NCBI GenBank assembly: GCA_016182185.1
Contig: JACOXU010000003.1
Coordinates: 57,974 to 121,973 of the forward strand
Origin: Candidatus Levyibacteriota bacterium
GTDB taxonomy: Bacteria; Patescibacteriota; Microgenomatia; Levybacterales; UBA12049
Direction: 5' to 3'
Length of the DNA stretch: 64,000 nt
Shown here: piece after piece, positions 7,261 through 35,220 of the stretch
Layout of the letters: every line of letters starts with the position of its first letter
Position numbering within the stretch: the first letter of the stretch is position 1
Made by a program: the position numbers and the translations under genes
Notes under the pieces: generated by a model
Told to the model about the DNA's origin: nothing
Database searches by the model: none
Seen by the model: the letters and a program-made list of their open reading frames with translations, nothing else

Positions 7261-7290
7261 TATAGCAGAAGATTAAATTGAAAATTTTCC

Positions 7291-7510
7291 TTCAAAAATA
7301 AACATCTTGCTTATTTTCAAAGGAAAAGAGAGAAGAAATTTTGTTGAGGTACGAAGACCAGCAAGTACAGACGCATTTGTCTGATGTGCAGTCTTAGTAA
7401 CTAGACAAAATTTGAGATCTTCTCTCTGTGATGGAATAAGTTGTTTGGTGGTGGTTTGTCATGCATATCGCAAGAGAGCAAGAGGGGGGAAACTCTCACA
7501 TCTGCGTCAA
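7291..7510. repeat. conserved AT-rich arm (downstream/3' side of cargo gene), copy 1; homologous to 22800..23050
   Basis: About 70-80% identity by eye to 22800..23050. Shared blocks CTGCTTATTTTCAAAGGAAAAGAGAGAAGAAAT, CAGACGCA(T/A)TTG(T/C)CTGA and CTTCTCTC. Ends in AGAGGGGGGAAACTCTCACA. Confidence 0.6.
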
Positions 7511-8395
7511 TGCAGCTGAATCACCAGGCTATTGCCCGAGGGGGTGAAATGACAACACCTAGTTCTTTCAGCCGAAACTGTCAGCGAAGCGCTCGCATCG
7601 CCGTCAAAGGGAGGTGAACCAGCGCGCAAGCGCTACTGTCGGGAGTGACTGTCTGGCGTCGGCGTGCTCAGGAACTGGCGGCAGAAGTGCCGGCAAGCCG
7701 ATCAGAGAAAAACACCCCTGCCTTTCCGCATCGCCGATGCAGGCCGTAGGTTAACGCAGTGCCCAGAACAACAGCTGCAATGATGGTCAGCTGAAGTGAC
7801 TGTGCATAACGAAGGATGTCGACGACGTCGCCGGTAATCGATGAGACGATCCAGCTGTCACGCAGGCTCGTTGGCGTCTGCGGAATCGTAGTAACTGGAG
7901 AGTCCCGAGATGAGCCGGTGATCGAAGAGTCAAGACCCACGTCATTGGTTAATGGACTATGAGCCATGCTCATGGCGCCGATGTCCGTGCAGTCGTGCGA
8001 TCCGCATGAAGCAGCCGTGTTGTCAGCAATGTCGGCGCTGTTGCGGATAGAGTCGTCCAGACCCTGACCTGACGTGAACGGGTGTAATATTCCCTGGGAC
8101 ACGTCCAGATTGACGATGGTCGCCTGAGACGAACTGGCGAGAGAGACTTCGGGACTTGCTCTGGCTTGCGGAGTCAAATGCTGACTGGGCATCAAAGCGA
8201 AGAAGCCGCAGATAGCAGCAAGTGCCACACACGCCATGAGTCCAAGAAGAGATCTCCCCTGTCGACATCTTACTGTCTCAAAGGACATAAGACCTCCTGT
8301 TACGGACCTGTCGGGATTGATATATTAAATTGTGATGAATCCGATAAACACCTCCGTATTGTGAATTTGGTGCAAATGCAAGAGTTCCCCCCGCC
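7481..8395 (-). mobile_element. GC-rich cassette-like island 1, bounded by inverted repeats AGAGGGGGGAAACTCT / AGAGTTCCCCCCGCC (putative; mobility unproven)
   Basis: Sharp GC shift (about 55-60% against about 35% in the flanks). A 12-bp inverted repeat sits at the inner boundaries. The same architecture with different cargo recurs at 23026..24281. Confidence 0.4.
7668..8288 (-). CDS. hypothetical membrane protein (cargo of island 1)
   Basis: 206-aa ORF with N-terminal and C-terminal hydrophobic helices. AGGAGGT lies 4 nt before the ATG. In GC-rich DNA long ORFs arise by chance, so coding status is uncertain. Confidence 0.4.
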   Translation of the reverse strand: MSFETVRCRQGRSLLGLMACVALAAICGFFALMPSQHLTPQARASPEVSLASSSQATIVNLDVSQGILHPFTSGQGLDDSIRNSADIADNTAASCGSHDCTDIGAMSMAHSPLTNDVGLDSSITGSSRDSPVTTIPQTPTSLRDSWIVSSITGDVVDILRYAQSLQLTIIAAVVLGTALTYGLHRRCGKAGVFFSDRLAGTSAASS

Positions 8396-8556
8396 AATTG
8401 ACAAGCCTTGTCAAAAAGCGGGGAAAACCTTACCCGCACTCAATTCATCACACTTATTCCAAATTTCAATGTGCGATTTGTTTTTTCCTGAAATACATCT
8501 GCAAATAGATGTACCAGAGCAAAAACAATTAATAGTCAACTATAATATAACACAAA
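8381..8556 (-). promoter_or_regulatory. conserved upstream arm/leader of island 1: TGTTATATT -10-like box, ~170-nt conserved leader with dyad TTGACAAGGCTTGTCAA, then the inverted repeat
   Basis: Homologous to 24266..24432 (TGTTATAAT, TTGATAAAGTTTATCGA). Lies upstream of the cargo-gene RBS in both islands. Confidence 0.45.
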
Positions 8557-8621
8557 TTATCCTAAATCAACAGGCATTTTGAGATTCTTGACTTAAATAT
8601 TAGAAGGTATATAATTCAGCT

Positions 8622-10629: not shown

Positions 10630-10676
10630 AAGACTATTATAACAAACTGTGTAAACTGCGCCAAAAGTAGAGAAAA

Positions 10677-11057: not shown

Positions 11058-11119
11058 AAGACCATTATACCACGGAGAGGAAAGAAGCCCTTTGATAACT
11101 CAGGCATTCTGTAGAAAAA

Positions 11120-11325
11120 TTACTGACTACTGATGGAAAATTTGGGATCCTTAGGGTCAAAAGCGTTTATATTTTTCGTAGCATCTAAAATCTCAATTCC
11201 CAAAACTTTTCCCTTCTTATCTTCATCCATTAAGATAGCATCGGAAATTTTCCGCGTACTCTCATATCCCCCTTTGCTAATTCAATATATACTGCGTCAA
11301 CTTTTGTATCGTATTTAAATTTCAT
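11120..11325 (-). pseudogene. DUF2283-family gene disrupted by a frameshift at a G5 homopolymer
   Basis: Reading frame 1 gives MKFKYDTKVDAVYIELAKGD... An alternative frame continues ...STRKISDAILMDEDKKGKVLGIEILDATKNINAFDP, the DUF2283 signature, to a TAA at 11120. Frame switch at GGGGG near 11255. Confidence 0.5.
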
Positions 11326-11339
11326 ATTATTATTCTATC

Positions 11340-11540
11340 ATTTTAATTCGGCAATCCGTATGTCGAATGCATGAGAGATTAAATGAGCGCATCAGGGGGA
11401 ACCCGAGAACTTCGGAGGGGGTGTTATCACCCGATAAGCGAGTTTAATCTTAAAAGCATGAGGCAAGGCTTGGCGAGAGCTTTTGCTTCTTTTCTCGGCA
11501 GAAAAGAGGAAGATTCACATGTTCCGAAAATATAACCGGC
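11340..11540 (-). pseudogene. possible decayed DUF4258-like gene remnant upstream of the DUF2283 gene
   Basis: Short broken frames MPVIFSEHVNL... and ...KIKLAYRVIT... resemble the DUF4258 N- and C-termini. Directly downstream of a TGGTATAAT promoter at 11546..11560. Low confidence. Confidence 0.3.
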
Positions 11541-11545
11541 ATGAG

Positions 11546-11560
11546 GAAATTATACCACGC
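11546..11560 (-). promoter_or_regulatory. extended -10 promoter GCGTGGTATAATTTC (copy 1 of 3)
   Basis: The 15-mer GAAATTATACCACGC (plus strand) recurs at 12194..12209 and 12693..12707, each just upstream of a minus-strand gene start. TGnTATAAT consensus. Confidence 0.55.
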
Positions 11561-11574
11561 CCAAATTTCGAATA

Positions 11575-12144
11575 TTATGGTTCTTCGTGATATTTATCTC
11601 TGAAATCTTGTTTTGCCTTTTCGACTGCTTTTCTTTGCTCTGAAGATGTTGCAGGAAAAATTCCGTCTCTCCTATTTTCATGGAGGAATTCCCTTGCTAA
11701 TGCCTTTGCATTGGCGGGATCAAATATTCCACTTGATTCGGCATTATCAATTTTCAAGAAATCAGCAAGCGCTTTATACGGCAGACTACCTGTTCCCCAA
11801 ACTGATGTTTCCCTAAATATTCCTCCCAATATTTCCTGCACTCCAAGCGGCATACCAGAATATACAAGCAATGCTTGAAATCTACCATTCAAAACATCCG
11901 TCAACTCAGAACCCTCCCTTCTCGCCATTGAAGCTAAGGCTTTTACCACCCTGCTAATATCGCTTGTATCTGGATCAGGGACTGGCAACCCTAAGGCATC
12001 CGATAACTGATCCACATCTACATCAGTCGCTCTCCCCTCGGAAAACGCAGTGGATGGTATCAACTTAAAAAGAGATCTAAGCTCTCCTTGAAGTTCCTGC
12101 GGGGTTGCTCGGGAATAATCTTTCTCGCCTTCGTGCTGCTGCAT
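11575..12144 (-). CDS. hypothetical protein
   Basis: 189-aa ORF. TGGTATAAT promoter about 55 nt upstream. Confidence 0.5.
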   Translation of the reverse strand: MQQHEGEKDYSRATPQELQGELRSLFKLIPSTAFSEGRATDVDVDQLSDALGLPVPDPDTSDISRVVKALASMARREGSELTDVLNGRFQALLVYSGMPLGVQEILGGIFRETSVWGTGSLPYKALADFLKIDNAESSGIFDPANAKALAREFLHENRRDGIFPATSSEQRKAVEKAKQDFRDKYHEEP

Positions 12145-12193
12145 ATTGAGGCTTGTATTTTAAAACTATTCTGCTTTAATTGCAAATGGCGAG

Positions 12194-12209
12194 GGAATTA
12201 TACCACGCC
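12194..12209 (-). promoter_or_regulatory. extended -10 promoter (copy 2), overlapping the stop codon of the upstream kinase gene
   Basis: GGCGTGGTATAATTCC on the minus strand. The TAA stop of 12198..12737 lies inside the TATAAT. Confidence 0.5.
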
Positions 12210-12737
12210 CTTTATTCTGTCTGCTGTCTCCTCCAGCGTTAATTCCGTACTGTCAATCTTCTCATCAAATTCCTTCAGCTTACCTTGCTCCATATGAAGA
12301 ATTTTTACCCTTTCTTCTTCAAGAGTAAAATCTCTCGACTTATTTCTTTTTAAAGTTTCTTCAAGCGTTGGCAGAAGCAAAACTATTTTTGGATTAAATT
12401 GTGAAAGACTTTCTTTGTATATTCTTGCTATCTCATCTGTTATAACATCAAGAATAATTACATCAAACCCTTCAGCGATAAAATTTTTTGTCAAAATACA
12501 AGCATTTCTTATTCCCAAAGCAACTTGTTTTTGTCCTTCTTCACCGTCCCACGGAGCTCGATGAGGCTTTGTAATCATATGACGGACAGTATCGACGTCA
12601 ACTATCGCACACTTTTTTCTTTCCGATGACAATATTTTAGAAACTGTATTTTTCCCTGCTCCGGCAGGTCCAGTAAGAATCAACAACATAAAGAAATTAT
12701 ACCACGCTGCTTTATACTGAGCGAAACCGAAGTACAA
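12198..12737 (-). CDS. P-loop NTPase / small-molecule kinase-like protein (AAA_33 or zeta-toxin-like fold)
   Basis: Walker A LILTGPAGAGKNT. The likely true start is MLLILTG at 12689, only 7 nt after the TATAAT (leaderless). Confidence 0.6.
   Translation of the reverse strand: MYFGFAQYKAAWYNFFMLLILTGPAGAGKNTVSKILSSERKKCAIVDVDTVRHMITKPHRAPWDGEEGQKQVALGIRNACILTKNFIAEGFDVIILDVITDEIARIYKESLSQFNPKIVLLLPTLEETLKRNKSRDFTLEEERVKILHMEQGKLKEFDEKIDSTELTLEETADRIKGVV
12693..12707 (-). promoter_or_regulatory. extended -10 promoter (copy 3), immediately upstream of the kinase-like gene start
   Basis: GCGTGGTATAATTTC followed by the ATG at the position expected for a transcription start. Confidence 0.45.
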
Positions 12738-12754
12738 AAGAAGCAGAGAATTAC

Positions 12755-13498
12755 CTACCTGCCCTGCTTTCTTTTCTCTATTGCACGCATTAACTGTTTA
12801 AATTCAATCGAAGGCTTCTTTTTACTCCATGGCATTTTTTTATCAAGCACCAAAGGTAGACTAAATATACCCCTTATTCCCCTAAGACGCGATTTAATGT
12901 CTTTGGATGACTCTCCTAGATAACTCTTATAAAATTTTAACTTCTCTCTTGCCTTATTTATTAATAAGTCCAAATTTTTTACTATATATTTATTCTTTAA
13001 AAATCCCTGTTTGGGTCGTATAAATTTTCCCTTTACAAATTCAACATATAATGAATTATTTCTAGCCCTCAATAATTCTTTACTCTCTTCGTCGGAAATT
13101 TTAAACATGTTAGTAATTTGTTCTAAATTAAACTCTTTAAAAGTTGTTAAACCATGGGATAGCTTTCGTGAATGCCTGACATAATTATTCTCAAACATTT
13201 TCCTTTTTCTTCGTCGAGAGTTAAAATTTATTTCAATTAATGTTGCTTCTGTATGCAAGAAGTCAATCTTACTAAGTTCTTCAATTGCAGTAGCAACATA
13301 AATTACGGATCTCTCCCTTTTACCTTTTTTTATTAAAAAATCGCATATATCCAGAAGCTCTTCAACGTTTTTCATTAGTTTTTTAATTGCGCGAGCACAA
13401 TCCAGCATGGATAGTCCCTCAAAAACTGGAAGTTGAAGAAATTTCTCGTCTGATTTATCAGTTATTATTTTAAGTCCTTTTTTTCTGTATACTCTCAT
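12755..13498 (-). CDS. hypothetical protein
   Basis: 247-aa Lys-rich ORF. TTGATT-17-CATAAT promoter at 13500-13545 with a short leader. Confidence 0.5.
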   Translation of the reverse strand: MRVYRKKGLKIITDKSDEKFLQLPVFEGLSMLDCARAIKKLMKNVEELLDICDFLIKKGKRERSVIYVATAIEELSKIDFLHTEATLIEINFNSRRRKRKMFENNYVRHSRKLSHGLTTFKEFNLEQITNMFKISDEESKELLRARNNSLYVEFVKGKFIRPKQGFLKNKYIVKNLDLLINKAREKLKFYKSYLGESSKDIKSRLRGIRGIFSLPLVLDKKMPWSKKKPSIEFKQLMRAIEKRKQGR

Positions 13499-13553
13499 CT
13501 CTGATGAGGGAAATTATGCGCTGGTTGGGGTGGAAAATCAAGCAGTTCTTGTT

Positions 13554-13928
13554 TTATTTGAAATATTTCTGAAGACCATCAGGAATCACTATCGCACCGC
13601 CCAAGATTGATCGCTCTCTGTCGTCGTACGGTTTGGGCTGAAAAATTACAGCATTAGCACCAACCTCTTCAAGTGTTCCAACAATATCTATTCCCATTTC
13701 ATGCATGAAGCTGGTAAATGACCGCAAATCAAATGGTTTTTCTTCTGTTATCTCAACCCTTATTGCATGTGGCTTCTTTCCTTCTGTCTGCCACCGATGA
13801 ATCCCTTCCAAAGCAATTGCAACAGCATTTTTTTCACGATCACCTAGATTTTCAAATGTTTCCAGTTGCTCGGAGCTTACAATTCCAAAATTCCTTCCTG
13901 CTTCCATAATAAGGTAGAAATATACCAA
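13554..13928 (-). CDS. hypothetical protein
   Basis: 124-aa ORF. The upstream region has the same TTGATTTTCCACC motif as the preceding gene. Confidence 0.45.
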   Translation of the reverse strand: MVYFYLIMEAGRNFGIVSSEQLETFENLGDREKNAVAIALEGIHRWQTEGKKPHAIRVEITEEKPFDLRSFTSFMHEMGIDIVGTLEEVGANAVIFQPKPYDDRERSILGGAIVIPDGLQKYFK

Positions 13929-13979
13929 AAATCAAAATTAAAATCAAGGGTTAGGGTGGAAAATCAAGCAGAATTAATT

Positions 13980-14237
13980 TTATCCATAAAGATTGCTGTG
14001 TTTATCAAGCACAATAAACAATACCGAATCTTTTTCTCTTCTAAATATTGCCCGTAAGTCTCCTGAAATATTTATACTCCTAAAACCCTTATATTCTCCG
14101 GTTAAGGCGTGATTATTGAGAATCGGACTAAATTCATCTTGTAGGAACAGGTTTCTTCTTTCTTTGAATTTTTTCTTTTGAGATTTAGTTAGTTTATTAT
14201 AGTCTTTGACAAACTTTCTGTGAGCGCGGATAGTCAT
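13980..14237 (-). CDS. yafQ: type II toxin-antitoxin system toxin, YafQ/RelE family mRNA interferase
   Basis: LNNHALTGEYKGFRSINISGDLRAIFRREKDSVLFIVLDKHSNLY is the canonical YafQ pattern. 85 aa. Confidence 0.75.
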   Translation of the reverse strand: MTIRAHRKFVKDYNKLTKSQKKKFKERRNLFLQDEFSPILNNHALTGEYKGFRSINISGDLRAIFRREKDSVLFIVLDKHSNLYG

Positions 14238-21590: not shown

Positions 21591-22787
21591 ATGGTATATT
21601 TTGATATGATGAAATCAATTTTACCTTTTGGAAAAATTGGGATTAAAAATAAAAAAACTTTCTATCGATTTTTACTGGACCATATACTCGCAGTTGTCTT
21701 GCCTCTAGCAGGTCTTGTTCTTGCAATGCAAATTGGTCCTCCCTTTACAACCAGCGCATCATATCTTTTTTTCGCGCCTCTTGTTGCCCTAAGTGCATGG
21801 AATGGCGGGGTAAGTGCCGGGACTCTCTCAACTATTATTGGGGCAGCTGCAATGTATTACTTCTTTTTATCCCCGGAAAAATCTCCTTTAGTATTTGATC
21901 TTTATGATGTTATTCAAATTATTTTAGTAATAATAGAAGGTACCTTTATAAGTTTTCTTATAGACATTGGAAAAAGAAAAGATAAAACACTTGAGTACAA
22001 AAAACTAATTAGAGAGCTCCGTATGGAAGTAGTAAATCTTGAAGAGGAGAGTAAAAAACGTTTAAATGAACTTAGATCGCGGGACGAATTTATTTCTATT
22101 GCTTCTCATGAGCTCAAGACCCCCCTCACATCGATGCTTCTTCAAACACAAACGGCTCTTCATAATATCCGCAATGTTTCACTTGCGCATTTCTCTATTG
22201 AAAGTCTTCTCAAAATGCTTGAAAGTGTTGAAGATCAAACAAAAAGACTTTCAAAAATGATTAATGATTTGCTTTCTGTTTCTGTAGTCGCAACCAGAAA
22301 AATTAATCTTGAATATGAAAAAATTGATTTTAATAAGTTGGTGGAGAACGTTTTGAACGACTTCTCTGAGCGAATAAGACGCGAAAATTATGTAGTAATT
22401 TATGATGCAAAAGAAAAGATCACTGGTAATTGGGATAAGATAAGAATAGCGCAGGCAATTTCAAACTTAATTTCAAACGCAATTAAATATGGCGATCACA
22501 AGCCAATTCAAATAAAGTTAAGAAAAAATCGAAGCTTTGCAGAGTTTATCATAAAAGACGAGGGCATTGGGATCTCCAAACAAAATCAGAAATACATATT
22601 TGATCTTTTCCGAAGGGGCATTTCCAATAATCAATACAAGGGTTTGGGAGTCGGACTTTATATATCAAAGGAGATAATCAAAGCGCATGGGGGAAAAATC
22701 GAAGTAACAAGTAAGTTAGCTAAGGGAACAAAATTTACAATTAAACTTCCACTTGGAAAATTGCAACAAAGCCCTGAGAATAATTGA
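21591..22787 (+). CDS. membrane sensor histidine kinase (HisKA + HATPase_c)
   Basis: H-box SHELKTPLTS, N/G boxes NLISNAIKYG...GLGVGLYISKEII, and N-terminal TM helices. Confidence 0.8.
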   Translation: MVYFDMMKSILPFGKIGIKNKKTFYRFLLDHILAVVLPLAGLVLAMQIGPPFTTSASYLFFAPLVALSAWNGGVSAGTLSTIIGAAAMYYFFLSPEKSPLVFDLYDVIQIILVIIEGTFISFLIDIGKRKDKTLEYKKLIRELRMEVVNLEEESKKRLNELRSRDEFISIASHELKTPLTSMLLQTQTALHNIRNVSLAHFSIESLLKMLESVEDQTKRLSKMINDLLSVSVVATRKINLEYEKIDFNKLVENVLNDFSERIRRENYVVIYDAKEKITGNWDKIRIAQAISNLISNAIKYGDHKPIQIKLRKNRSFAEFIIKDEGIGISKQNQKYIFDLFRRGISNNQYKGLGVGLYISKEIIKAHGGKIEVTSKLAKGTKFTIKLPLGKLQQSPENN

Positions 22788-22799
22788 CATAAATTCTCC

Positions 22800-23050
22800 T
22801 CCAAAAACAAACACCCTGCTTATTTTCAAAGGAAAAGAGAGAAGAAATAATGAAAGGTAACGATGACCAGCTTGATTCAGACGCAATTGCCTGAGTAGCA
22901 GTCAAGGAAACCTGACAAAATTTTGTGAGCCTTCTCTCCTGGTAAATGTAATGGGAATAAGTTTGCATTGGAGTCTCCTTTCGGATTAACATGGCTGTTA
23001 ATTGATCCGCCAAACGCAGAGATTTGAGAGGGGGAACTCTCACACCTGCA
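22800..23050. repeat. conserved AT-rich arm (3' side of cargo gene), copy 2; homologous to 7291..7510
   Basis: See copy 1. Ends GAGAGGGGGAACTCTCACACCTGC, immediately followed by the stop codon of the fbp-like gene. Confidence 0.6.
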
Positions 23051-24281
23051 CTAGCGGGGTTGTTGCTCCGTCTCGGGCGGAGGAGGTGAACCTGCAGGTA
23101 CAGGTTGCACCCTTGTGGTAGAAGCCGCTTCCTCATCGGATAGTGGCGTCCATCGGTCGGCGAGCTTTTTGGCAACGTCCGGCATGGTTGTGTATTCCAT
23201 CTCCTCCAAGGGAAGACGGTGGGGTTCGAATGGTCCGTGCTTACGCAGGTAGTCGGCGATATCGTTGGCCTCCTGGCGGACGTTGTCAAAACCCGGGTCG
23301 TCGAACATGTCGTTCGGGCCAATAAGCTTGCCGTTTGCAAGCTGAAATCCCAGCGACACGAGTCGCGGCGGGCCGTCGAAGCGGCTCGGGTGTGCGTCTT
23401 TCAAGCCAACAGGCATAAGCGGCCCATGGTGGGATCCGCGCATCCAGCCCTCAACTGTCCACGCAGTGGTGAACGGTTCGAGCACTTCGCCCACAGCCGG
23501 GAAATTTCCCTGACAGCGAACGATCATGGTCGGGTCGTCCTTGCCAACGTAGCGGCCGGCAATCATGGACAACTTGTCCGTGCTGGAACACGCAGCGATC
23601 TCACCGGAGTCACGATGGCGCACGCGCTTTACGGCGTAACGCTGTCCAGAACCGATGAAGACGAGCATGTCGTAGATCTCATCCGGCGCGTTAAGCGTGA
23701 CCTGCAGGTGCTCCTTGACGTCCTGGACTTCGAAGGAAAACCCTCCATGGAGTGGCGCTCCGATAACGAGCCCCGGCGTGTTGAACGGATCCGCGAACAT
23801 CTTGTAGAGCGGCAGGTTGAAAGCTCCGGCTGAGGTCTTGTCGCCCATGAAGACGATGATTGGCTCTGACGGCCGCTCGTCGATCTCCATTTCGGCCGAA
23901 CCGGGACCTGCTCCCTTGATGTTACCGCTGAATGCGTCCGTCAGAAGGTCCTGGCCTGCGCCGTAAAGCTTGAGCTTCTTGGCCAGTTCCGTACCCTTGA
24001 CAAACGTGTCCCACGCCAACTTGTGGATCTCTGTGTTGTTCTCGCCACGATCGTGAGTCATGATGAGAAACATGTCGTCTCCACAGTGGCTGACGTGACA
24101 ATCGACAAGAACTCCGGCCTGCTTTGCCTTCTCCAGCTCTTCACGACCGAGGTCGAGAATATCCGGATGAGACGAGCAGTGGCCGACCATTCCGCCGATA
24201 TCCGCTTTTATGACAGAAATTGTAACCAAAATTCCTCCTTGTTAGCTTTTGAATGGTGTAGATGTAAGAGTTCCCCCCGCC
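23026..24281 (-). mobile_element. GC-rich cassette-like island 2, bounded by the same inverted repeats as island 1 (putative; mobility unproven)
   Basis: GGGGGAACTCT at 23031..23041 and AGAGTTCCCCCC at 24267..24278. Cargo GC is about 60%. Confidence 0.4.
23051..24229 (-). CDS. fbp: fructose-1,6-bisphosphate aldolase/phosphatase (class V FBPase, archaeal-type bifunctional)
   Basis: N-terminal MVTISVIKADIGG and internal YKMFADPFNTPGLV, WMRGSHHGPLMPV, RFDGPPRL and EMEYTT are signature motifs of FBP aldolase/phosphatase. AAGGAGG lies 5 nt upstream of the ATG. Confidence 0.85.
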   Translation of the reverse strand: MVTISVIKADIGGMVGHCSSHPDILDLGREELEKAKQAGVLVDCHVSHCGDDMFLIMTHDRGENNTEIHKLAWDTFVKGTELAKKLKLYGAGQDLLTDAFSGNIKGAGPGSAEMEIDERPSEPIIVFMGDKTSAGAFNLPLYKMFADPFNTPGLVIGAPLHGGFSFEVQDVKEHLQVTLNAPDEIYDMLVFIGSGQRYAVKRVRHRDSGEIAACSSTDKLSMIAGRYVGKDDPTMIVRCQGNFPAVGEVLEPFTTAWTVEGWMRGSHHGPLMPVGLKDAHPSRFDGPPRLVSLGFQLANGKLIGPNDMFDDPGFDNVRQEANDIADYLRKHGPFEPHRLPLEEMEYTTMPDVAKKLADRWTPLSDEEAASTTRVQPVPAGSPPPPETEQQPR

Positions 24282-24432
24282 ACTCGATAAACTTTATCAA
24301 AAGACGGGGAAAACCCTACTCTACCCAATTCATTTTCCAACTTATTCCATTACTTTTTAATGTGCAAAATGTTTACACCTTTTTGTACCAGCGATATAGA
24401 TACAGAAGATGAAAAACAAAATATTATAACAT
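24266..24432 (-). promoter_or_regulatory. conserved upstream arm/leader of island 2 (TGTTATAAT, dyad TTGATAAAGTTTATCGA, inverted repeat)
   Basis: Homologous to 8381..8556. Confidence 0.45.
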
Positions 24433-27224: not shown

Positions 27225-27656
27225 TTACCTTGAGGCAGAGATATTTGGTGACCCTTCAGTACCGCAAGCTTTTACTGTAACAAGACCGGCAGCATTTACC
27301 ACAACAGAATATCCTGTTAAAGCAGCTGTGCCATTACTCGGATCTAATGGAATAGAATTGAGATAATTAGCAAGAGCACCGCTAAGATCTACACAGCCAT
27401 TAGTAGCTCCTACGTTGCAGCCACCTGTTGCAATAGCGCAATTAGCAGCTGTAGGTTCAGTACCGATCTGTTTTTCGACCATGCCGGCCGTAAGGCCAGA
27501 AGGAAGAGCACCAGCATTGTCTACGATTGAGGCATGAATGGCAGTCAAGATACTTTGAGTATCAGAAACTCTCTTGGCATCTCTTGTATCCTCGAGTCTT
27601 TGGGCAGGATTTAAGGCTACAAAGACCACGACTGCCAAAACTGCGATAATTGCCAT
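27225..27656 (-). CDS. type IV pilin-like protein lacking a prepilin leader (paralog A)
   Basis: Starts MAIIAVLAVVVFVALNPAQRLEDTRDAKRVSDTQ, corresponding to pilin helix residues ~7 onward. The first ~110 nt of coding sequence are identical to paralog B. Confidence 0.6.
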   Translation of the reverse strand: MAIIAVLAVVVFVALNPAQRLEDTRDAKRVSDTQSILTAIHASIVDNAGALPSGLTAGMVEKQIGTEPTAANCAIATGGCNVGATNGCVDLSGALANYLNSIPLDPSNGTAALTGYSVVVNAAGLVTVKACGTEGSPNISASR

Positions 27657-27700: not shown

Positions 27701-28132
27701 TTATCTTGAAGCAGAAATTGTGGTTGCTCCTTCAGTACCGCAGGCTGTCACTGTCACAAGTCCTGCAGCACTGACCACTACGCTGTAACCTGTTTCTGCG
27801 GCTGTATAGGTGGTTCCTCCCGTTGGATCGATTGGAATAGTATTCAAGTAATTGGCAAGAGGAGTAGTTAGATCAACACATCCGGTTGGAGTTATCGAAC
27901 ACACGCCCACTGTTCCTCCGCAACCGGTTGCCGCTGTTCCGATTTGAGTCTGTGACATGCCTGCAGTAAGGCCAGAAGGAAGAGCACCAGCATTGTCTAC
28001 GATTGAGGCATGAATAGCGGTAAGAATTGTTTGGGTATCAGAAACTCTCTTGGCATCTCTTGTATCCTCGAGTCTTTGGGCAGGATTTAAGGCTACAAAG
28101 ACCACGACTGCCAAAACTGCGATAATTGCCAT
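27701..28132 (-). CDS. type IV pilin-like protein lacking a prepilin leader (paralog B)
   Basis: Identical N-terminal 36 aa, divergent C-terminus. TTGACA-18-TAATAT promoter with the ATG 7 nt after the -10 (leaderless). Confidence 0.6.
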   Translation of the reverse strand: MAIIAVLAVVVFVALNPAQRLEDTRDAKRVSDTQTILTAIHASIVDNAGALPSGLTAGMSQTQIGTAATGCGGTVGVCSITPTGCVDLTTPLANYLNTIPIDPTGGTTYTAAETGYSVVVSAAGLVTVTACGTEGATTISASR

Positions 28133-28601: not shown

Positions 28602-29141
28602 TTAATTACTCCTTATCTCTGCATCACTGCTTATGCTTGTAGACGCATTATTCTGATTTCCTGACCCAAATTTTGAAGTGACTGTCAGGATAAACTGGAT
28701 ATTTTTTGTTTTGTAATCAGACGAAGAGTAATTGGTAAATTCAAGATTTGTATAGGTATTTCCTGAATTAAGCGGAACAAAGCTACCAGTTCCTTGCCTT
28801 ACCAAAACTTGTCCTCCTCCGCCTCCAATAATCCATGTAGGATTCGTGGCTGGATTTGAAGTATTAAGTATTATCATTGTTGGGAAGAAAGCGCTGACTC
28901 CCGTCGCATTTCTCACTTCGTATTTAAGTCTTTCTGCTATGTAACGCGCCTGAGAATTCACTTCCTGCTGTACTGCGCTTTTGCGGCTTGATAAAATCAT
29001 ATCCCAGGAAAAAGGTATTATTGTAACCAGCATCATTACAAATATTGACACATATAGAATAAGCTCTATAAAAGTGAAGCCTTTTTGATTATTTAATAAT
29101 TTATTACTGTTATTTTTCATTATTCTGTCAGATTCCTCCAA
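28602..29141 (-). CDS. prepilin-type N-terminal cleavage/methylation domain protein (minor pilin)
   Basis: ...NQKG|FTFIELILYVSIFVMML is a canonical class III signal. Confidence 0.65.
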   Translation of the reverse strand: MEESDRIMKNNSNKLLNNQKGFTFIELILYVSIFVMMLVTIIPFSWDMILSSRKSAVQQEVNSQARYIAERLKYEVRNATGVSAFFPTMIILNTSNPATNPTWIIGGGGGQVLVRQGTGSFVPLNSGNTYTNLEFTNYSSSDYKTKNIQFILTVTSKFGSGNQNNASTSISSDAEIRSN

Positions 29142-31081
29142 AATGCGAATGAAAACGGACTGCTTATTGTTTGTGATAACGATGATGTAATTCCGCCCGT
29201 ATCGGAATTAGTCCAAAATAAATAATCGGTTATTCCAATACGCAGGAACCATAATCTTTTTGCATATAATGAATTACTGCTGTCCGTAACGAAAAATAAA
29301 AATTGATTTTGAGTAATTGGATTCATTTGAATGTCGTACCATCTCTGACTGGTCGTGAAAAGCGGAGATGGCGCCCAGTCCGTTTGAAGCGTAAATGCGC
29401 CTCCGCTGCCTGCATACCAGCCGATGTTACCTGCTCCGCTGTCATGATAGGCAATCACATGTTTATTATAAGTTGTAAAGACCAGCCATCCCGTGGACAC
29501 CAATTTTGTCCCGGCCGAAGGTGCGGCGGTTGTAGTATCTGCAATCGCCGGTGAGTTCCAGACGGTTCCGTTCCAGTAAGCAAGTTGCAATCCCGGAGTA
29601 TTTGAGCCAACCGAACCAAGTATAATCTCATTTGAGGCAGCAGAGGGATTTGCCGAGATATCTAAATTTACCGCGTCGTTGGTAGTAAGCGTTATTATCG
29701 AACCCCATGAACACCCGGTATAAGTTGCTGCCCCACCGTTATTGGTACATATAGTATATTTTGTTCCGTTTGAAGCATTTCTTCCATGCCCTGTTGCGTA
29801 TCCCCACATTACCATAACATTACCTGACTGACTCATATACTCAACATCAAAATTATCCACATCCTGTACAGTACTTATATTCTCCAGTGAATTTTCCAGA
29901 GTGCTTCCCTGAACCCAGGAATTGCCTGTAGGATCCCAGACGGCATTTGACAGGCCGGATCCGTCATCGGCATAAATTGCCGTTATTAAATTGGAGCCTA
30001 TCCTTCTGTCCCATGCCATTTTCACCCATTGAATTATTCCTTTGGGCTGAGTAGGATTATAATTCACCTGCACTGACCAGTTTGCGCCTCCGCAGCCTAC
30101 TGATCCTGATTTAGTTCTATATGCCAGTTCATTTGTTGGTTTGTTGTTTGTGCTGTAAAGCACTACAATCTTACCAGAATTTGTTTCATAGGCAATATCA
30201 AATCTTCCTGTCTCCCCCGTTCCGCCTACAACTGCAGACCAATCCTGTGTCCACTCGTATCCGTCAAAACACATTATATATAGTATGCCTGAAGAATCGA
30301 CATATCCTGCAACAGCTTCTGATCCAGTCGGAGAAGTTCTGACAAGAAAAGTCCGGGTTTGTGTTCCTGTTGGAATAGGTGTAGGCATAGAGACCTGTTT
30401 TGAAAATTTAGTATTTAAAGCAGTCTCAAATATTCTATGTTTAACCACATCGGTTCCGTCTCCATACATTAAAAGACCTCCTTCCGTAATAATCGGTTTT
30501 TTGAAACTAGTAAGATAATTTATAAGAACAACAGAATTTTGCCGCGCCGCACTAAAATTCCAAGTGACCGTTGAAGTGATCTTCTTTGTATTTTTATCAA
30601 GCGCACCTCCACTTGTAACTATATTTCCTCCTGATCGATAGACATCTTCAACTTTGATAACTCTTTTATATTTGTTATTGGATCCAAAATAATTCTCGGT
30701 TCCGTAAAATTCCCAAACATTTCCTGCTGAACGCCTCACTCCGGTACCACTTGAGCTTACTAAATACTTATAATTTTGATTTCTAACGGATCTTGCTGCT
30801 TCAAGCCCTTCGCTGGCAAATTGAGTAGCCACAGCCTGCTCTCCCCCAAGTCTATTTGAAGAAAGAGCCTGAAGAACTATGCTGATTGCACCTGATGAAA
30901 AAATTACAAATAAAGTCGCAGCCAGAATCAATTCAATTACGGAAAACCCAGTATCAAAATTTCTAATTGACTTAATTCCTAATTGATCTAAAAAAATTCC
31001 AAATCTAAATTTTCTATATTTGCCTCTTGGTGCTTTATTAGAAATTAGATTAATTAGAGTACTTAGAAATTGTTTTCTCAT
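29120..31081 (-). CDS. large prepilin-like protein (653 aa; candidate tip or adhesin pilin)
   Basis: ...RNFDTG|FSVIELILAATLFVIF prepilin motif after a long leader. Large Gly/Ser/Thr-rich beta-rich body. Confidence 0.6.
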   Translation of the reverse strand: MRKQFLSTLINLISNKAPRGKYRKFRFGIFLDQLGIKSIRNFDTGFSVIELILAATLFVIFSSGAISIVLQALSSNRLGGEQAVATQFASEGLEAARSVRNQNYKYLVSSSGTGVRRSAGNVWEFYGTENYFGSNNKYKRVIKVEDVYRSGGNIVTSGGALDKNTKKITSTVTWNFSAARQNSVVLINYLTSFKKPIITEGGLLMYGDGTDVVKHRIFETALNTKFSKQVSMPTPIPTGTQTRTFLVRTSPTGSEAVAGYVDSSGILYIMCFDGYEWTQDWSAVVGGTGETGRFDIAYETNSGKIVVLYSTNNKPTNELAYRTKSGSVGCGGANWSVQVNYNPTQPKGIIQWVKMAWDRRIGSNLITAIYADDGSGLSNAVWDPTGNSWVQGSTLENSLENISTVQDVDNFDVEYMSQSGNVMVMWGYATGHGRNASNGTKYTICTNNGGAATYTGCSWGSIITLTTNDAVNLDISANPSAASNEIILGSVGSNTPGLQLAYWNGTVWNSPAIADTTTAAPSAGTKLVSTGWLVFTTYNKHVIAYHDSGAGNIGWYAGSGGAFTLQTDWAPSPLFTTSQRWYDIQMNPITQNQFLFFVTDSSNSLYAKRLWFLRIGITDYLFWTNSDTGGITSSLSQTISSPFSFAFWRNLTE

Positions 31082-31572
31082 CTGCTTGCCACCCCCTGAC
31101 TATTTACAGTTATCGTCTTTGTTTCTGAATTTCCCTGAATTGAAATACTGCCGGAAGAAGGATCTGGCAAGCCTGTCATTCTTGCAAATAAAATATCTGT
31201 CGTCCCTGTTATGGAAATATTCGGATTTACAGTGAATTTTTCATCTAAAGCCTGATTCCTAAGAGCAAAAGAGGTTCCGCTGAAAAGTGTGATCGTACCT
31301 GTTGCGTAATGTACACCCCAATTATTTGAATTTTTACTCATCATAGCGTACATCTGGGCTTTTCTTAACGATCCGATATATTGATCCTGAACGTCTGAAA
31401 CCGTATTCTGAATCAGGAAATTGGTGTAAAAATTTGCCGAGAAAGTTCCGATCAGAAGAAAAATTGCTGTTGTTAATATCAATTCGATTAAAGTGAACCC
31501 CAATCGGGATTTAGGACCTGCCTTGCCGACAGGCAGGTTTATGATATACGATTTATGATTTTCTTTATCCAT
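31078..31572 (-). CDS. type IV prepilin (candidate major pilin) with long leader
   Basis: ...GPKSRLG|FTLIELILTTAIFLLIG, a canonical G/FTLIE class III signal peptide. Confidence 0.7.
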   Translation of the reverse strand: MDKENHKSYIINLPVGKAGPKSRLGFTLIELILTTAIFLLIGTFSANFYTNFLIQNTVSDVQDQYIGSLRKAQMYAMMSKNSNNWGVHYATGTITLFSGTSFALRNQALDEKFTVNPNISITGTTDILFARMTGLPDPSSGSISIQGNSETKTITVNSQGVASR

Positions 31573-31605
31573 TCCATCTTAATTCTTAAATCTTAATTCT
31601 TATTT

Positions 31606-32697
31606 CTATCTTTTTATCCCGCCTGTAAATTGGTAAATCGGAGAAATAATAGACATCGCGATGAATGCGACAATAAGCCCAACCAGAATAAGAATTACCG
31701 GCTCTATAACAGTTGCGAAATTTTTGGCAGCAGAATCAACTTCGTCTTCAAAATAGTCACCCAAATAAAGTAGCGATTCATCAAGTTTGCCGGTTTTCTC
31801 CCCAACCCCGATCATTCTGGCCGCAATAAGAGGAATATACTTAAATTTGGCGGAGCTGAAGATTTCCTCGATTGATTTTCCCCTTTCAACCTCATGCGTT
31901 AAGGTTTTGAAGTATTTTTTGTAGACAGTATTTAAGGTAGCATCCGCTTGAGTGGATAAAGCAGTGACAATCGGAAGACCGCTTGAAAGCATGATTCCAA
32001 GATTGCGGCAAAACGAAGCAAGTTCTACGTTTTGAATAAAGGGGCCATAAATAGGAAAAGTAAGCACCACTTTCTGCCAGCGAGACTTAACAACCGGCAG
32101 ACTGATTACGGTTCGAACAAGTAGCGCAATTGCAATAAGTCCGGCAAAGATTACAAAACCGTATCCTTTCATTGCAGTTCCTATGAAAATCAGAACCTTT
32201 GTTGTAAACGGCAATTCAACATCCAAAGAGGTAAGAAGATCAACAAGTTTTGGCAAAACAAAGATACTTATTCCTGACCCTGCCAAAATTGCCGTTGAAA
32301 GTATTATAGCAGGATAAAACAGTGCCCCCTGAACCTTTTTCTTAAATTCCTGATTTTTTTTAATCTGAAGCGCTAAATAATCTAAATTTTTTTCAAGATT
32401 TCCTGATTCTTCTCCAATTGTAATAAGACTTAAATAAAACGAGTTAAAAACACGCGGGAATTCGCCGAGCGCTTTTGAAAGAGTACGTCCAGAAACAACT
32501 GTTTTTTTGATTGTGTGAACAATTCTTTTGAATAACCGGTTTTGTGTCTGACCTTCGACAATACTTATTGCCTCAGCAAGTGATATTCCGCTTTTAAGCA
32601 TTATGGATAAGTGACGCGTAAAAAGAAGAATATCTATGTCCCCTACCTTCTCAAAAAGGTTAAAATTAGGTGTTTGAATGGGCAGTTTTGTCTTCAT
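31606..32697 (-). CDS. pilC: type IV pilus assembly platform protein PilC (GspF family)
   Basis: Two T2SSF-like repeats and 3 TM segments. ATGA overlap with the pilB stop. Confidence 0.85.
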   Translation of the reverse strand: MKTKLPIQTPNFNLFEKVGDIDILLFTRHLSIMLKSGISLAEAISIVEGQTQNRLFKRIVHTIKKTVVSGRTLSKALGEFPRVFNSFYLSLITIGEESGNLEKNLDYLALQIKKNQEFKKKVQGALFYPAIILSTAILAGSGISIFVLPKLVDLLTSLDVELPFTTKVLIFIGTAMKGYGFVIFAGLIAIALLVRTVISLPVVKSRWQKVVLTFPIYGPFIQNVELASFCRNLGIMLSSGLPIVTALSTQADATLNTVYKKYFKTLTHEVERGKSIEEIFSSAKFKYIPLIAARMIGVGEKTGKLDESLLYLGDYFEDEVDSAAKNFATVIEPVILILVGLIVAFIAMSIISPIYQFTGGIKR

Positions 32698-34427
32698 TCT
32701 TTTGTTACCCGAAGGACTTCCTCAAGAGTTGTTTCTCCTCCCTTGACTTTTTCGAGTCCGTCTTCAAGCATGGTCGTCATACCCTCCCCAATTGCCTGTT
32801 TGTTTATGACAGGAGCATCTGTCTTTTTTACAACCAGATCCTCTATGGATTCAGACATTTCTAGAATTTCAAAAATTCCTACTCTTCCAGTATAACCCGT
32901 ATTATGACAAACATTACAGCCCTTGCCTTTATAAAGAGTAAGTGTCTGACGAGCTCCGAATATTTTCTTAATCATTGATTTGTCAAAATGTTTTAATATC
33001 TCAGAAGTTTTTTCTATATAAGAAACCTTACATGTTAGGCAAATCTTACGAACCAATCTTTGGGCAATAATTATATTTATGGTTGAAGCGACCAAAAAGG
33101 GTTCAATTTTCATATCGATTAATCTTGGGATCGCAGTTGCGGCATCATTCGTATGAAGAGTGGAAAGAACTATGTGGCCTGTCATGGCACTATTTACTGC
33201 AATATCGGCAGTCTCATCATCCCGAATTTCACCCACATAAATAACATTGGGATCCTGTCTTAGAATGGATCTTAATCCTTCGGCAAAGGTCAAATTAGTC
33301 TTGGGATTAACCTGAATTTGATTTAAGCCTTCAATATCGTATTCGACCGGGTCTTCGATTGTAGCGATATTGCGGTCTCTTGTATTTAAAATTTTAAGAA
33401 TTGCGTACATTGTTGTGGTCTTTCCTGAACCTGTCGGACCGGTCGATAAGATCATCCCGAATGGCTTTTGGATTGCATCTGAGACTTTATCAAAATCACT
33501 TTTATTCATTCCAAGATCTGAGAGTCCGAATTGCCGATAATGTGATGATAAAAGTCTCATTACGCAATTTTCTCCGTGTGTGATGGGAACAATTGAAACA
33601 CGAATATCAAGATCTTCAGCGGCGAGATTTGCTTGCATTTTCCCGTCTTGTGCGCTTAAGTGTTCATCTGTTTGAAGCTTGGATAAAACCTTAATGCGAG
33701 ATATTACCTGCTTGTGAATTTCCAAAGAAAATGATAAAACCTCGTGCATTATCCCATCGATTCGGAAACGAACTACAGATCTGTTTCTTTCAGGCTCAAT
33801 ATGAATGTCAGAGGCTGTATTGGCGTAAGCATATTCAATCAGAAGATCAACTATTTTAATAATAGGCGCCTCGTGGGGCTTTCCTTCTCCGAGCTTGGAC
33901 ATTTGTTCTTCCAAAAGCTTATTGAAGGTTTTCTGTAAATCTTTTTTATAAATATTAAAGGATTTTTCAATGTCTCTGATTGTCGCAAAATATGGAATGA
34001 CTTCCTTACCGGTTTTTTTGCTGACAAGAACTAAGACATCTTTATCTTTTGGATTATTCGTGGCTACTTTGACTGAACTTTCTTTCTCTTCAAAAACTAT
34101 CACCTTGTGATTTCGAGCAAATTCCTCAGGCAGCATAAGCTTGGCGGTTTCGGGAAAGGAAATGGAAGAAAGCGAAACAAATGGGGCATTGAGAAGTTCC
34201 GCAATACTTTTTCCGACATCCTCATCGGAGATCAAGTCTTTTTGTATTAATAACTCATCAAGAAGCGCACCGGTAACCTTTGTTTCTTCAAATACTTCAT
34301 CGAGTTTTTTCTGCGGAATTATTTTTAATTCCCTTAAGAAATCGTACAGGTCTTGATTCTCATAGGAAGCCATATGATTAGCGTAGCATAAGAAGTTTTG
34401 GGATACAACATTTCTATTTGGAGACAA
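32694..34427 (-). CDS. pilB: type IV pilus assembly ATPase PilB (GspE family)
   Basis: T2SSE N-domain. Walker A GPTGSGKTTT, Asp/His boxes, and a tetracysteine motif (CLTC...CNVC). Confidence 0.9.
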   Translation of the reverse strand: MSPNRNVVSQNFLCYANHMASYENQDLYDFLRELKIIPQKKLDEVFEETKVTGALLDELLIQKDLISDEDVGKSIAELLNAPFVSLSSISFPETAKLMLPEEFARNHKVIVFEEKESSVKVATNNPKDKDVLVLVSKKTGKEVIPYFATIRDIEKSFNIYKKDLQKTFNKLLEEQMSKLGEGKPHEAPIIKIVDLLIEYAYANTASDIHIEPERNRSVVRFRIDGIMHEVLSFSLEIHKQVISRIKVLSKLQTDEHLSAQDGKMQANLAAEDLDIRVSIVPITHGENCVMRLLSSHYRQFGLSDLGMNKSDFDKVSDAIQKPFGMILSTGPTGSGKTTTMYAILKILNTRDRNIATIEDPVEYDIEGLNQIQVNPKTNLTFAEGLRSILRQDPNVIYVGEIRDDETADIAVNSAMTGHIVLSTLHTNDAATAIPRLIDMKIEPFLVASTINIIIAQRLVRKICLTCKVSYIEKTSEILKHFDKSMIKKIFGARQTLTLYKGKGCNVCHNTGYTGRVGIFEILEMSESIEDLVVKKTDAPVINKQAIGEGMTTMLEDGLEKVKGGETTLEEVLRVTKE

Positions 34428-34791
34428 ATTTAGTAATTTTAGTGACCAAATCTCCCAATGATAAATTCGTTTTTATTATATAATCTGTTGCTCCAAGTCT
34501 TGTTGCTTTATCTATATCTTCCTTTTGCCCAAGGTTTGATGCGACAATTACAGGAATTCTTTTAGTCAGGGGGTTGGCTCTCACTTCTTCAAGAACAGTA
34601 AATCCGTCTTTAACAGGCATCACTAAATCAAGAATAATAACATCCGGTACATTTGTCTTCAGCTGCTCGATTGCCTGTTGACCATCCTCGGCGACTATAG
34701 CTGTGAAGCCTGCTTTTTCGAGTTTTACTCTAATTGCATTACGAAGATATTTATCATCTTCAGCAATTAATATTTTTTTACCAGTACTCAT
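34414..34791 (-). CDS. single-domain response regulator (REC)
   Basis: KKILIAEDDKYLRNAI...VIILDLVMPVKDG...K. Confidence 0.8.
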   Translation of the reverse strand: MSTGKKILIAEDDKYLRNAIRVKLEKAGFTAIVAEDGQQAIEQLKTNVPDVIILDLVMPVKDGFTVLEEVRANPLTKRIPVIVASNLGQKEDIDKATRLGATDYIIKTNLSLGDLVTKITKFVSK

Positions 34792-35177
34792 GCCAGTCTT
34801 TTGTGCTGTTTAATTAATGAAACAAGGTCTTCAAGCTTCCAGTCAGATTTGACCAAAAATGCGCGGACCGTATTTTCCTCTATCTTTGTATCTTTTTCTG
34901 CTCCGCTCAAATTAGAAAGGACAATAACTTCGGCATTTCTCCCCCATGAATCACGTCTTAGTTCTTCAAGAACAGTCATTCCATCCATTACCGGTAAAAT
35001 AATATCCAAAAGAATCAGATCCGGGTGGTTACTTAATGCTTTATCCAATCCTTCCTTCCCATCATAAGCAGATATGACAGAAAAGCCTTCTTTTTCAAGT
35101 TTTGTAACCATTGCACTGTGCAAGGCTTGATCATCTTCGATGATAAGAATTTTAAGAGTATTTACGTTTTCCATCAT
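34788..35177 (-). CDS. single-domain response regulator (REC)
   Basis: LKILIIEDDQALH...LILLDIILPVMDG. ATGA-type overlap with the downstream response regulator. Confidence 0.8.
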   Translation of the reverse strand: MMENVNTLKILIIEDDQALHSAMVTKLEKEGFSVISAYDGKEGLDKALSNHPDLILLDIILPVMDGMTVLEELRRDSWGRNAEVIVLSNLSGAEKDTKIEENTVRAFLVKSDWKLEDLVSLIKQHKRLA

Positions 35178-35220
35178 TATTAAAACTATCTAAGATTATA
35201 CATCTTTTTAAATAAAATAT

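Follow-up and report, generated by a model that had tools for sequence, protein, structure and literature searches.

Phage morons are reportedly autonomous promoter-gene-terminator units of deviant composition that lie between other genes, as Hendrix and colleagues are said to have described them, and integron cassettes are exchangeable gene units of about the size of an open reading frame (ORF). Pairing between sequences on the two sides of a gene is represented by the RNase III stems of rRNA operons, the fold-back of hok mRNA and the RNase III sites of T7 early mRNAs, and ORFs are embedded in structured RNA in the ORF loops of group I and group II introns and in HEARO/omega-RNA with IscB. 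We analysed a stretch of 64,000 nucleotides (nt), hereafter the window, from a Candidatus Levyibacteriota bacterium (contig JACOXU010000003.1), a groundwater organism with a tiny genome and a member of the Candidate Phyla Radiation (CPR, Patescibacteria). These organisms have a minimal metabolism and depend on other cells, and their gain and expression of foreign genes are poorly understood. The window holds two cassettes in which a cargo ORF rich in G and C (GC) is set between conserved untranslated arms. Copy 2 carries a class V fructose 1,6-bisphosphate (FBP) aldolase/phosphatase gene (FBPase), and copy 1 carries an unrelated gene for a putative membrane protein. We consider it probable that copy 2 holds a functional FBPase, derived from Chloroflexota and partly ameliorated, in a conserved, lineage-specific frame with exchangeable cargo. 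The significant part is the frame itself, as a structured, host-lineage-specific transcription unit with exchangeable GC-rich cargo.

Like morons, the cassettes have their own promoter and factor-independent terminator, a deviant composition (z=8-11 for GC at third codon positions, GC3) and a cargo unrelated to its neighbours. Unlike morons, they do not lie in a prophage but among housekeeping-type genes, and their flanks are conserved between units and genomes, adopt a common fold and accept different cargos. With integron cassettes they share an ORF-sized, promoterless-looking foreign cargo with almost no donor untranslated region (UTR), interchangeability at a conserved site and imperfect inverted repeats (IRs) at the boundary. 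However, intI, attI and an array are absent, as is an attC-like site flanking the ORF on one side; repeats are present on both sides of the ORF, the 5' one goes with the host lineage, and every unit has its own promoter and terminator. The screened ORFs contained no integrase, and the two units stand 15 kb apart among housekeeping genes. A transposon with terminal inverted repeats or a miniature element of that kind is contradicted by homology between copies that reaches 170-260 nt beyond the IR, by a host-specific 5' IR strand and by the lack of a target-site duplication and a transposase. As in the enclosing 5'-3' pairings, the flanks could pair with each other around the ORF, in stretches of about 9 and about 22 bp, and the 22-bp duplex would be of a suitable size for RNase III. 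Sequence and Rfam relationships to these systems are lacking, though, the frame encloses an exchangeable protein gene, and the 5' strand of the longer helix has a competing local partner. As in ORF-embedding RNAs, conserved structured RNA halves lie on both sides of the ORF, but no Rfam intron, HEARO or ribozyme was matched, the frame stands alone with promoter and terminator, and the cargo is not a homing endonuclease, reverse transcriptase or nuclease. The frame resembles a moron or gene cassette, yet matches neither an integron cassette, a terminal-inverted-repeat element, a prophage moron nor any Rfam family. In the literature search, no paper was found that connects FBP aldolase/phosphatase with CPR or that reports cassettes of this kind.

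Five distinct cassettes from four low-GC CPR genomes were compared, namely copies 1 and 2 of the window and those on contigs L007, L008 and L017. Their cargos belong to two families, FBPase and an orphan protein with two transmembrane segments. The order on the coding strand was the same in all five: an extended -10 promoter, a conserved leader, a Shine-Dalgarno (SD) sequence A(A/C)GGAGG, the cargo, a conserved 3' region and a hairpin of about 20 bp followed by a T-run (table 1). A TGnTATAAT/TATATT box was located upstream of every cassette, and a good -35 element (TTGACT/TTGAAC) at a distance of 17 nt occurred in L007, L008 and L017. Within the window, the left arms of the two cassettes were 83% identical over 81 nt, including an exact 31-mer, the right arms were 82% identical over 66 nt, and the IR motif occurred four times (0.58 expected). 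The first-pass annotation had placed the FBPase gene and the unrelated gene at 7.7-8.3 kb in one arm and inverted-repeat framework, and these identities and counts agree with it. The framework extends beyond this genome: as a conserved, structured unit of transcription, it occurs in at least four CPR genomes. No further copies were found in GTDB representatives or IMG/VR, a scan of JGI metagenomes returned the L008 contig only, and all-against-all BLAST of the arms over all fetched sequences revealed no extra or empty frames.

Table 1. Parts of the two cassettes, in positions of the window
Feature	Position	Strand	Remarks
Copy 2 promoter, extended -10 box TGTTATAAT	24423..24431	-	read from the sequence
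Copy 2 5' arm, structured leader	24230..24416	-	homologous to copy 1, L007, L008 and L017; sense fold z=-8.4
Copy 2 helix A, 5' strand	24340-24349	-	within 5' arm
Copy 2 segment B'	24305-24326	-	within 5' arm
Copy 2 hairpin H2	24286-24298	-	within 5' arm
Copy 2 B5, 5' strand of IR	24255-24281	-	within 5' arm
Copy 2 SD, AAGGAGG	24234..24240	-	4 nt before TTG; A(A/C)GGAGG kept in 5/5 cassettes
Copy 2 cargo coding sequence, FBP aldolase/phosphatase	23051..24229	-	392 aa; TTG start (24227-24229), TAG stop (23051-23053)
Copy 2 B3, 3' strand of IR, GUGCAGGUGUGAGAGUUCCCCCUCUC	23026..23051	-	complementary to B5 over about 22 bp
Copy 2 helix A, 3' strand, ACUUAUUCC	22954..22962	-	pairs with 24340-24349 across the entire cargo
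Copy 2 3' domain, nested helices closed by GAGAGAAG / CUUCUCUC	22837..22945	-	helices 5-8
Copy 2 intrinsic terminator	22784..22836	-	hairpin of about 20 bp and T-run; also present in copy 1
Copy 1 promoter	8542-8570	-	within 8345..8570
Copy 1 5' arm (with promoter)	8345..8570	-	B5 8369-8395; helix A 5' strand 8452-8461; first SD 8351-8357
Copy 1 GC-rich cargo segment	7511..8344	-	spacer, second SD 8293-8297, ORF 7668-8288, 3' UTR 7511-7667; GC 0.55
Copy 1 3' arm	7275..7510	-	B3 7482-7506; helix A 3' strand 7433-7441; 3' domain; terminator 7285-7327

The histories of arms and cargo were found to be separate. L007 and L008 come from related hosts (81% amino acid identity for purB and 79% for a beta-lactamase-like protein), and the cassettes occupy syntenic slots (cupredoxin, beta-lactamase-like ... 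FBPase, purB). The 5' arms of this pair were 83% identical, compared with 75% between copies 1 and 2 and 69% between copy 2 and L007, and the 5' IR strand was identical within each host pair (L007 and L008; copies 1 and 2). The FBPases of L007 and L008, however, shared 73% of nucleotides and 77% of amino acids and belong to different donor clades. Conversely, the window represents a distant host, and its arms and those of L007 were 60-69% identical, whereas the FBPases of the same pair were identical at 89% of nucleotides and 96% of amino acids. Host relationships are mirrored in the arms but not in the cargo, and the frame predates the cargo that it carries. In a sliding comparison of copy 2 with L007, identity was 0.88-0.97 from just past the 5' IR strand through the SD and the coding sequence to the 3' IR strand, and beyond that strand it fell abruptly to 0.35-0.5. 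The segment bracketed by the inverted repeat is the unit of exchange. In both lineages, the donor-derived part runs from about the start codon into the C-terminal tail and includes no donor UTR. What lies between the IR strands has been exchanged, and donors of different clades have supplied FBPase on at least two occasions. A single ameliorated allele of FBPase has spread between CPR lineages, and a paralogous frame holds the unrelated GC-rich membrane-protein gene.

When the cargo was deleted, the transcripts of all five copies folded into one common architecture consisting of helix A (UUGGAAUAAGU / ACUUAUUCC), internal hairpins, helix B (the IR of about 22 bp), the closed 3' domain and the terminator. 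The sense-strand folds had z-scores of -8.4 to -11.9 against dinucleotide shuffles and were 14-40 kcal/mol more stable than the antisense folds. From the five-sequence alignment, from which nothing but the spacer of variable length between helices A and B was removed, a consensus of 100 pairs was obtained, in which 92.6% of the cells were paired, against 46-54% when the partners were slid. Compensatory double changes affected 15 pairs (2-6 when slid; shuffle mean 8.9), a number reached by none of 500 shuffles. Both strands of helix A (helix 1, 9 bp) were near-invariant, and its pair probability was about 1.0 in folds of the full-length transcripts of copies 2 and 1, L007 and L008 (1.2-1.7 kb). 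Helix B (helix 4) comprised 22 pairs (93.6% paired), with a B5:B3 duplex of -39 kcal/mol, and varied through G.U only (14 G.U cells vs 4 A.C cells). Nine pairs of the 3' domain (helices 5-8) had compensatory double changes, and the terminator (helix 9) was also compensatory across copies. A local pairing of B5 with B' contained a compensatory change as well (CUAC/GUAG in copy 2, GCAC/GUGC in copy 1), and the folding models suggest that B5 has two conserved, mutually exclusive partners, B3 and B'. The choice between them does not seem to act as a translational switch, since the accessibility of the SD was unchanged when either was enforced (0.34 vs 0.47; 0.50 vs 0.43). A known RNA family was also ruled out: Rfam 15 gave no match at the gathering score over the window, and permissive scans of both cassettes gave matches at chance level only (E>0.1, far below the gathering score). 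No ligand-pocket-like motif was identified in the cassette RNA.

Two further features of the leaders were observed. The 5' leaders of L007, L008 and L017 (e.g., L007 5700-5760) contain an additional 5' hairpin, whose loop, GAGAAUUGUUAA, is conserved and whose stem covaries (CGUCU/AGACG, AUGUC/GACAU, UUGUC/GACAA); this hairpin is missing in both window copies. In copy 1 (8300-8357), L017 (930-1000) and L008 (5930-6000), a conserved TATCG located 5-7 nt after the first SD can be read as an ATC-started mini-ORF of 2-6 codons, followed by a conserved spacer of about 55 nt (..TATC[AC]ATCC..) before the cargo. In copy 2 and L007, the TTG of FBPase occupies exactly this position.

The cargo of copy 2 had been identified from its motifs as a class V FBPase, and profile searches bore this out. 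The PF01950 (FBPase_3) profile was aligned to the 392-residue product over positions 2-360 of 361 (E=7.2e-177; 588 bits, curated cut-off 25), and the solved structures 3r1m and 1umg (Sulfolobus tokodaii) and 3t2b (Thermoproteus neutrophilus) were matched at E<=1e-131 (E=5e-146 for 3r1m) and are about 55-60% identical to it. The ORF is intact, all five motifs quoted in the first-pass annotation are present in it, and RYVGKDDP, CGDDMF, AGQDLL, GDKTSAG and EMEYTT are retained in the alignment to 3r1m_A, so that the catalytic Tyr-x-x-Lys-Asp-Asp and the metal-binding segments are kept. Structural papers of 2011 reportedly assigned roles to the Schiff-base lysine of YxxKDD and to the GDD, GQD, DKT and EMEYTT segments. 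On the strength of its sequence, we assign the cargo to the class V FBP aldolase/phosphatase family, and a functional enzyme, with predicted bifunctionality, forms part of our explanation. In contrast to the solved enzymes, it belongs to the bacterial (Chloroflexota-type) branch, has a 30-residue low-complexity C-terminal tail, resides in a CPR genome and has an intermediate codon composition. The FBPases of the window and L007 are 96% identical in amino acids but differ at 37% of four-fold sites, which indicates purifying selection. The start codon is TTG rather than the ATG that had been assumed, although the AAGGAGG in front of it was located correctly. The stop codon had been described as abutting the left inverted repeat; indeed, the TAG overlaps the first base of the repeat, but this feature is specific to the window copy. 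Translation ends 12 nt sooner in L007 and 9 nt sooner in L008; the window copy has CAA in place of the first TAG, which leads to read-through.

The composition of the gene was clearly foreign. Its GC was 0.580 and its GC3 0.684, compared with 0.381+-0.033 and 0.306+-0.033 (maximum GC3 0.376) in the 64 host ORFs of the window, which corresponds to z=6.1 and z=11.3, respectively. Horizontal acquisition, as proposed in the first-pass annotation, is supported by this distance; the statement that its GC is roughly twice that of the host holds for GC3 (about 2.2-fold) and not for total GC (1.5-fold). The label 'archaeal-type' turned out to be a family nickname only, because the nearest relatives are bacterial. 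Among 8000 FBPase homologues, the named close ones were from Dehalococcoidia/Chloroflexota, and a partial Dehalococcoidia protein shares a 90% cluster with the window FBPase. The closest relatives (88-93% amino acid identity) occur in bacterial genomes with a uniform GC of 0.64-0.67, in which the DUF1122-FBPase synteny is conserved. Six donor-type contigs (L009, L011, L012, L013, L014 and L016) had a uniform GC of 0.63-0.67, an FBPase GC3 of 0.89-0.95 and no arm-like sequence. On the donor contigs with enough upstream sequence, FBPase is preceded by a DUF1122 gene, which is its direct neighbour in L009, L012, L013 and L014 and is separated from it by a single gene in L016; this arrangement is native synteny that was inherited vertically. 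GC-rich FBPase (0.56-0.58) on low-GC contigs (0.36-0.40) was found in L007 and L008 as well. L008 and L010 are one contig, from a 'Patescibacteria group bacterium' of Hainich groundwater, and L015 carries a cassette identical to that of L007.

In the distance tree, the window and L007 copies were placed beside the donor-type proteins P0002 and P0003 (92% and 88% amino acid identity), and L008 was located in a distant clade beside P0077, P0082, P0080 and P0136 (up to 93%). Because the CPR copies nest separately within two donor clades, FBPase entered CPR at least twice, in the direction from Chloroflexota to CPR. Compositional attraction would draw the CPR copies together and not apart. The source was probably high-GC, Dehalococcoidia-like Chloroflexota, the recipient was a Candidatus Levybacteria-like CPR bacterium, and the gene has since been partly ameliorated. 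In the CPR copies, GC3 (0.63-0.68) is roughly halfway from the donor level (about 0.9) to the host level (about 0.3). It varies little along the genes and shows no donor-level blocks, which rules out a mosaic structure or recent conversion tracts. Shared amelioration was tested at third positions with G or C in all six donor-type sequences. The window and L007 had 48 AT-shifted positions in common (20.7 expected; odds ratio 15, p=6e-17), so their allele was ameliorated inside a low-GC genome before the copies separated; the window and L008 had 21 in common (14.9 expected), which is near independence. L007 (5962-7128) and L008 (6001-7158) also share AT-shifted third positions beyond chance (31 vs 17.4; odds ratio 4.5, p=7e-6) despite their different donor clades, and this excess could be due to parallel codon adaptation in related hosts or to patchy conversion. 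Between the window and L007, four-fold sites differed by 0.37 in FBPase, compared with 0.72 in CysRS (74% amino acid identity) and 0.71 in the beta-lactamase-like gene (52%), host genes in which these sites are saturated. Thus, the allele is younger than the host split and has moved between CPR lineages. Polarised substitution counts for the equilibrium GC3 were abandoned, because outgroups with 90% GC3 bias the polarisation. The acquisition had been described as recent; considering that GC3 has fallen from 0.89-0.95 in donors to 0.68 here and that the ameliorated allele is common to another CPR genome, the transfer was moderately old and repeated, from Chloroflexota, rather than recent from archaea.

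The cargo of copy 1 is a 206-residue ORF with hydrophobic segments at its N and C termini. It had no Pfam match, and a word search of 5.8 billion proteins returned no relatives besides its own NCBI entry. An exhaustive HMMER scan of 1.8 billion representatives found a single relative, P0161, which sits inside the same frame on L017, a contig of 0.39 GC from an unrelated SRA run. The arms of copy 1 and L017 were 81-82% identical (0.8-0.95 in the cores), and both units have the spacer after the first SD, the second SD and homologous first codons. The host genes of L017 were 60-64% identical to those of the window, with partial synteny. The two cargo proteins were 35.5% identical, and their differences were near-equal at all three codon positions. 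Their GC3 values of 0.58 and 0.64 are nevertheless far from the host values of 0.24-0.32, and a relic of recent transfer cannot account for such a composition at this divergence. Either the GC-richness is maintained inside the frame or both cargos were re-acquired from unsampled donors, and we leave it unexplained. An origin of the copy 1 cargo as a neighbour of the donor's FBPase was considered, because L016 has a 206-residue ORF downstream of FBPase, and was rejected because the two show no similarity. About 115 nt of extra GC-rich 3' UTR (window ~7520-7640) is present in copy 1 and missing from the L017 homologue, and it may be a remnant of donor downstream sequence.

The host context was also investigated. 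The first-pass annotation had noticed that many host genes look leaderless, and this was substantiated, with the caveat that ORF starts were assigned mechanically: an SD-like motif preceded 10 of the 64 host ORFs (background 10%), and a -10 (TATAAT-like) box lay 4-15 nt before the start in 20 of them (background 8%). The host is thus largely SD-less, and the conserved SD of the frame is itself unusual in this genome. The neighbours of the cassettes encode histidine kinase, response regulators, a beta-lactamase-like protein, GSDH and pur gene products. No tRNA or tmRNA target site was found in the window. A type IV pilus PilB/PilC pair, a CheA/CheB/MCP-like set and several histidine kinases and response regulators are encoded at 29120-47221, and receiver-domain repeats were detected among the histidine kinase/response regulator genes of the window. 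By analogy with what is known of Saccharibacteria, the PilB/PilC and Che-like proteins would be compatible with DNA uptake. Other features of the window were noted as well. Between the two cassettes (10000-14000), a toxin-antitoxin/defence-type cluster (YafQ toxin, HEPN_AbiV, AAA_33, HTH_3) was recognized from the annotation of L002. Two tandem ORFs of 143 residues (27225-27656 and 27701-28132; 476-bp period, 74-90% DNA identity) lie beside a LytR_C gene. A partly palindromic, AT-rich intergenic repeat, AAATTTCTAATT... then AAATTAGGTCAATTAGG, occurs in three copies (30953-31064, 56207-56301 and 61473-61543) and could be a regulatory or promoter-region repeat.

Our explanation supposes that the frame would act as an autonomous minus-strand transcription unit, with an extended -10 promoter, a leader of about 190 nt, the SD, the cargo ORF, a 3' domain of about 230 nt and a terminator. 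Its 5' and 3' untranslated arms would pair around the ORF through helix A (9 bp) and helix B (about 22 bp). In this way, the frame may give foreign ORFs an SD-dependent translation in a mostly leaderless host and a protected or processed mRNA, and the cargo may be replaced after DNA uptake by recombination in the best-conserved segments, that is, the helix B strands and the SD region. Several points weigh against this explanation. The evidence base is five distinct cassettes from four genomes, and the consensus structure was derived from the same sequences that were used in its test. Helix A and most of helix B are invariant, so they provide no evidence from covariation; full-length folds favour the local B':B5 pairing over the long-range helix B, the enforcement of which costs 4.7-10.3 kcal/mol, and the choice of partner leaves the accessibility of the SD as it is. 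No recombinase was found among the screened ORFs (about 30 of about 65 in the window), homologous recombination does not explain the first capture from a donor without frame homology, and simple amelioration does not explain the GC3 of the saturated cargos of copy 1 and L017. A bolder extension is possible but tentative: the frame might be an undescribed, CPR-specific platform for gene capture and expression, an RNA scaffold combined with DNA that is repeatedly loaded with ORF-sized DNA of high-GC neighbours (possibly physical hosts), uses SD-led translation in a leaderless host and actively keeps its cargo GC-rich through RNA selection or biased conversion.

Other accounts were weighed as well. 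The FBPase could be an ordinary acquired gene, with flanks that are the native UTRs of an old FBPase locus, an IR and arms without function beyond promoter, SD and terminator, and copy 1 as a decaying duplicate filled with junk. Those three elements are indeed ordinary, the full-length folds do not favour helix B, and copy 1 keeps a possible remnant of 15-20 nt of FBPase 5' codons after the SD of the frame. We nevertheless regard this account as rather unlikely, considering that the copy 1 cargo is an intact, conserved ORF with a homologue in the same frame of another genome, that arms of the copy 1 type are 81-95% identical across genomes with 60-64% identical proteins, which implies constraint, that fold z-scores reach -12 with compensatory changes, and that L007 and L008 hold FBPases of two donor clades in one syntenic slot. 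The alternative that the cassette is mobile at the DNA level, with the IR strands as integron-, transposon- or invertase-like recombination sites, a recombinase encoded elsewhere and a secondary role for RNA structure, would fit IR strands that bound the exchanged block, paralogous frames with different cargo, and donor-derived sequence confined almost exactly to the coding sequence in two independent captures. It is unlikely in view of the absence of integrase, transposase and invertase genes from the screened ORFs and the annotated flanks, of a target-site duplication and of any cassette match on viral contigs. The cassettes are moreover solitary, the 5' IR strand follows the host and not the cargo, and both the 14 to 4 ratio of G.U to A.C pairs in helix B and the better folding of the sense strand favour RNA.

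Two accounts concern the composition. The cargo might be GC-rich through continual re-acquisition from, or gene conversion with, high-GC donor DNA, possibly that of the episymbiont's physical host, and not through one old transfer. The at least two independent captures of FBPase, each with a donor-type relative at 92-93% amino acid identity, the similar GC3 of all five cargos (0.58-0.68) and the type IV pilus genes of the host point in this direction. The uniform GC3 along the FBPase genes, the AT-shifted sites that place the window and L007 allele within CPR genomes, and the absence of a high-GC homologue of the copy 1 type cargo among 1.8e9 representative proteins make it very improbable. 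Finally, an assembly chimera, in which a high-GC Chloroflexota fragment was wrongly joined into a low-GC CPR contig, was suggested by the abrupt shift of GC at both island ends and by the termination of every Logan contig within the left arm. Those ends fall exactly at 22819 or 7310, the start of the exact repeat common to both left arms, because the k-mer graph breaks there. Logan contigs from five SRA runs were 100% identical to the window, with the same junctions assembled in all five, and one of them (L001, spanning 27519 to 22819) crossed both GC boundaries at 100% identity. The exact FBPase protein was encoded on Logan contigs of independent SRA runs, and the copy 1 protein was found in five runs; the NCBI entry of the window protein is MBI2031887.1, 'fructose 1,6-bisphosphatase [Candidatus Levybacteria bacterium]', on a 190-kb contig. 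The same layout of cargo in frame was present in independent NCBI, ENA and Logan assemblies of other studies (L007, L008/L010 and L017), and the GC3 of FBPase is intermediate (0.68) and not donor-like (0.9). A chimera or contaminant, against which the first-pass annotation had cautioned, is thus effectively refuted.

A conserved frame with exchangeable cargo, our preferred explanation, would have several meanings for the biology of these bacteria. On at least two occasions, one genomic slot has received a key gluconeogenic enzyme from Chloroflexota. The conserved RNA frame appears to serve as a ready-made, SD-dependent expression socket in a host that initiates translation mostly without SD. 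The compositional anomaly has lasted over a long divergence and challenges the routine practice of dating transfers as recent from their GC deviation. The identity of the donor may also hint at which organism these uncultured episymbionts have as their partner.

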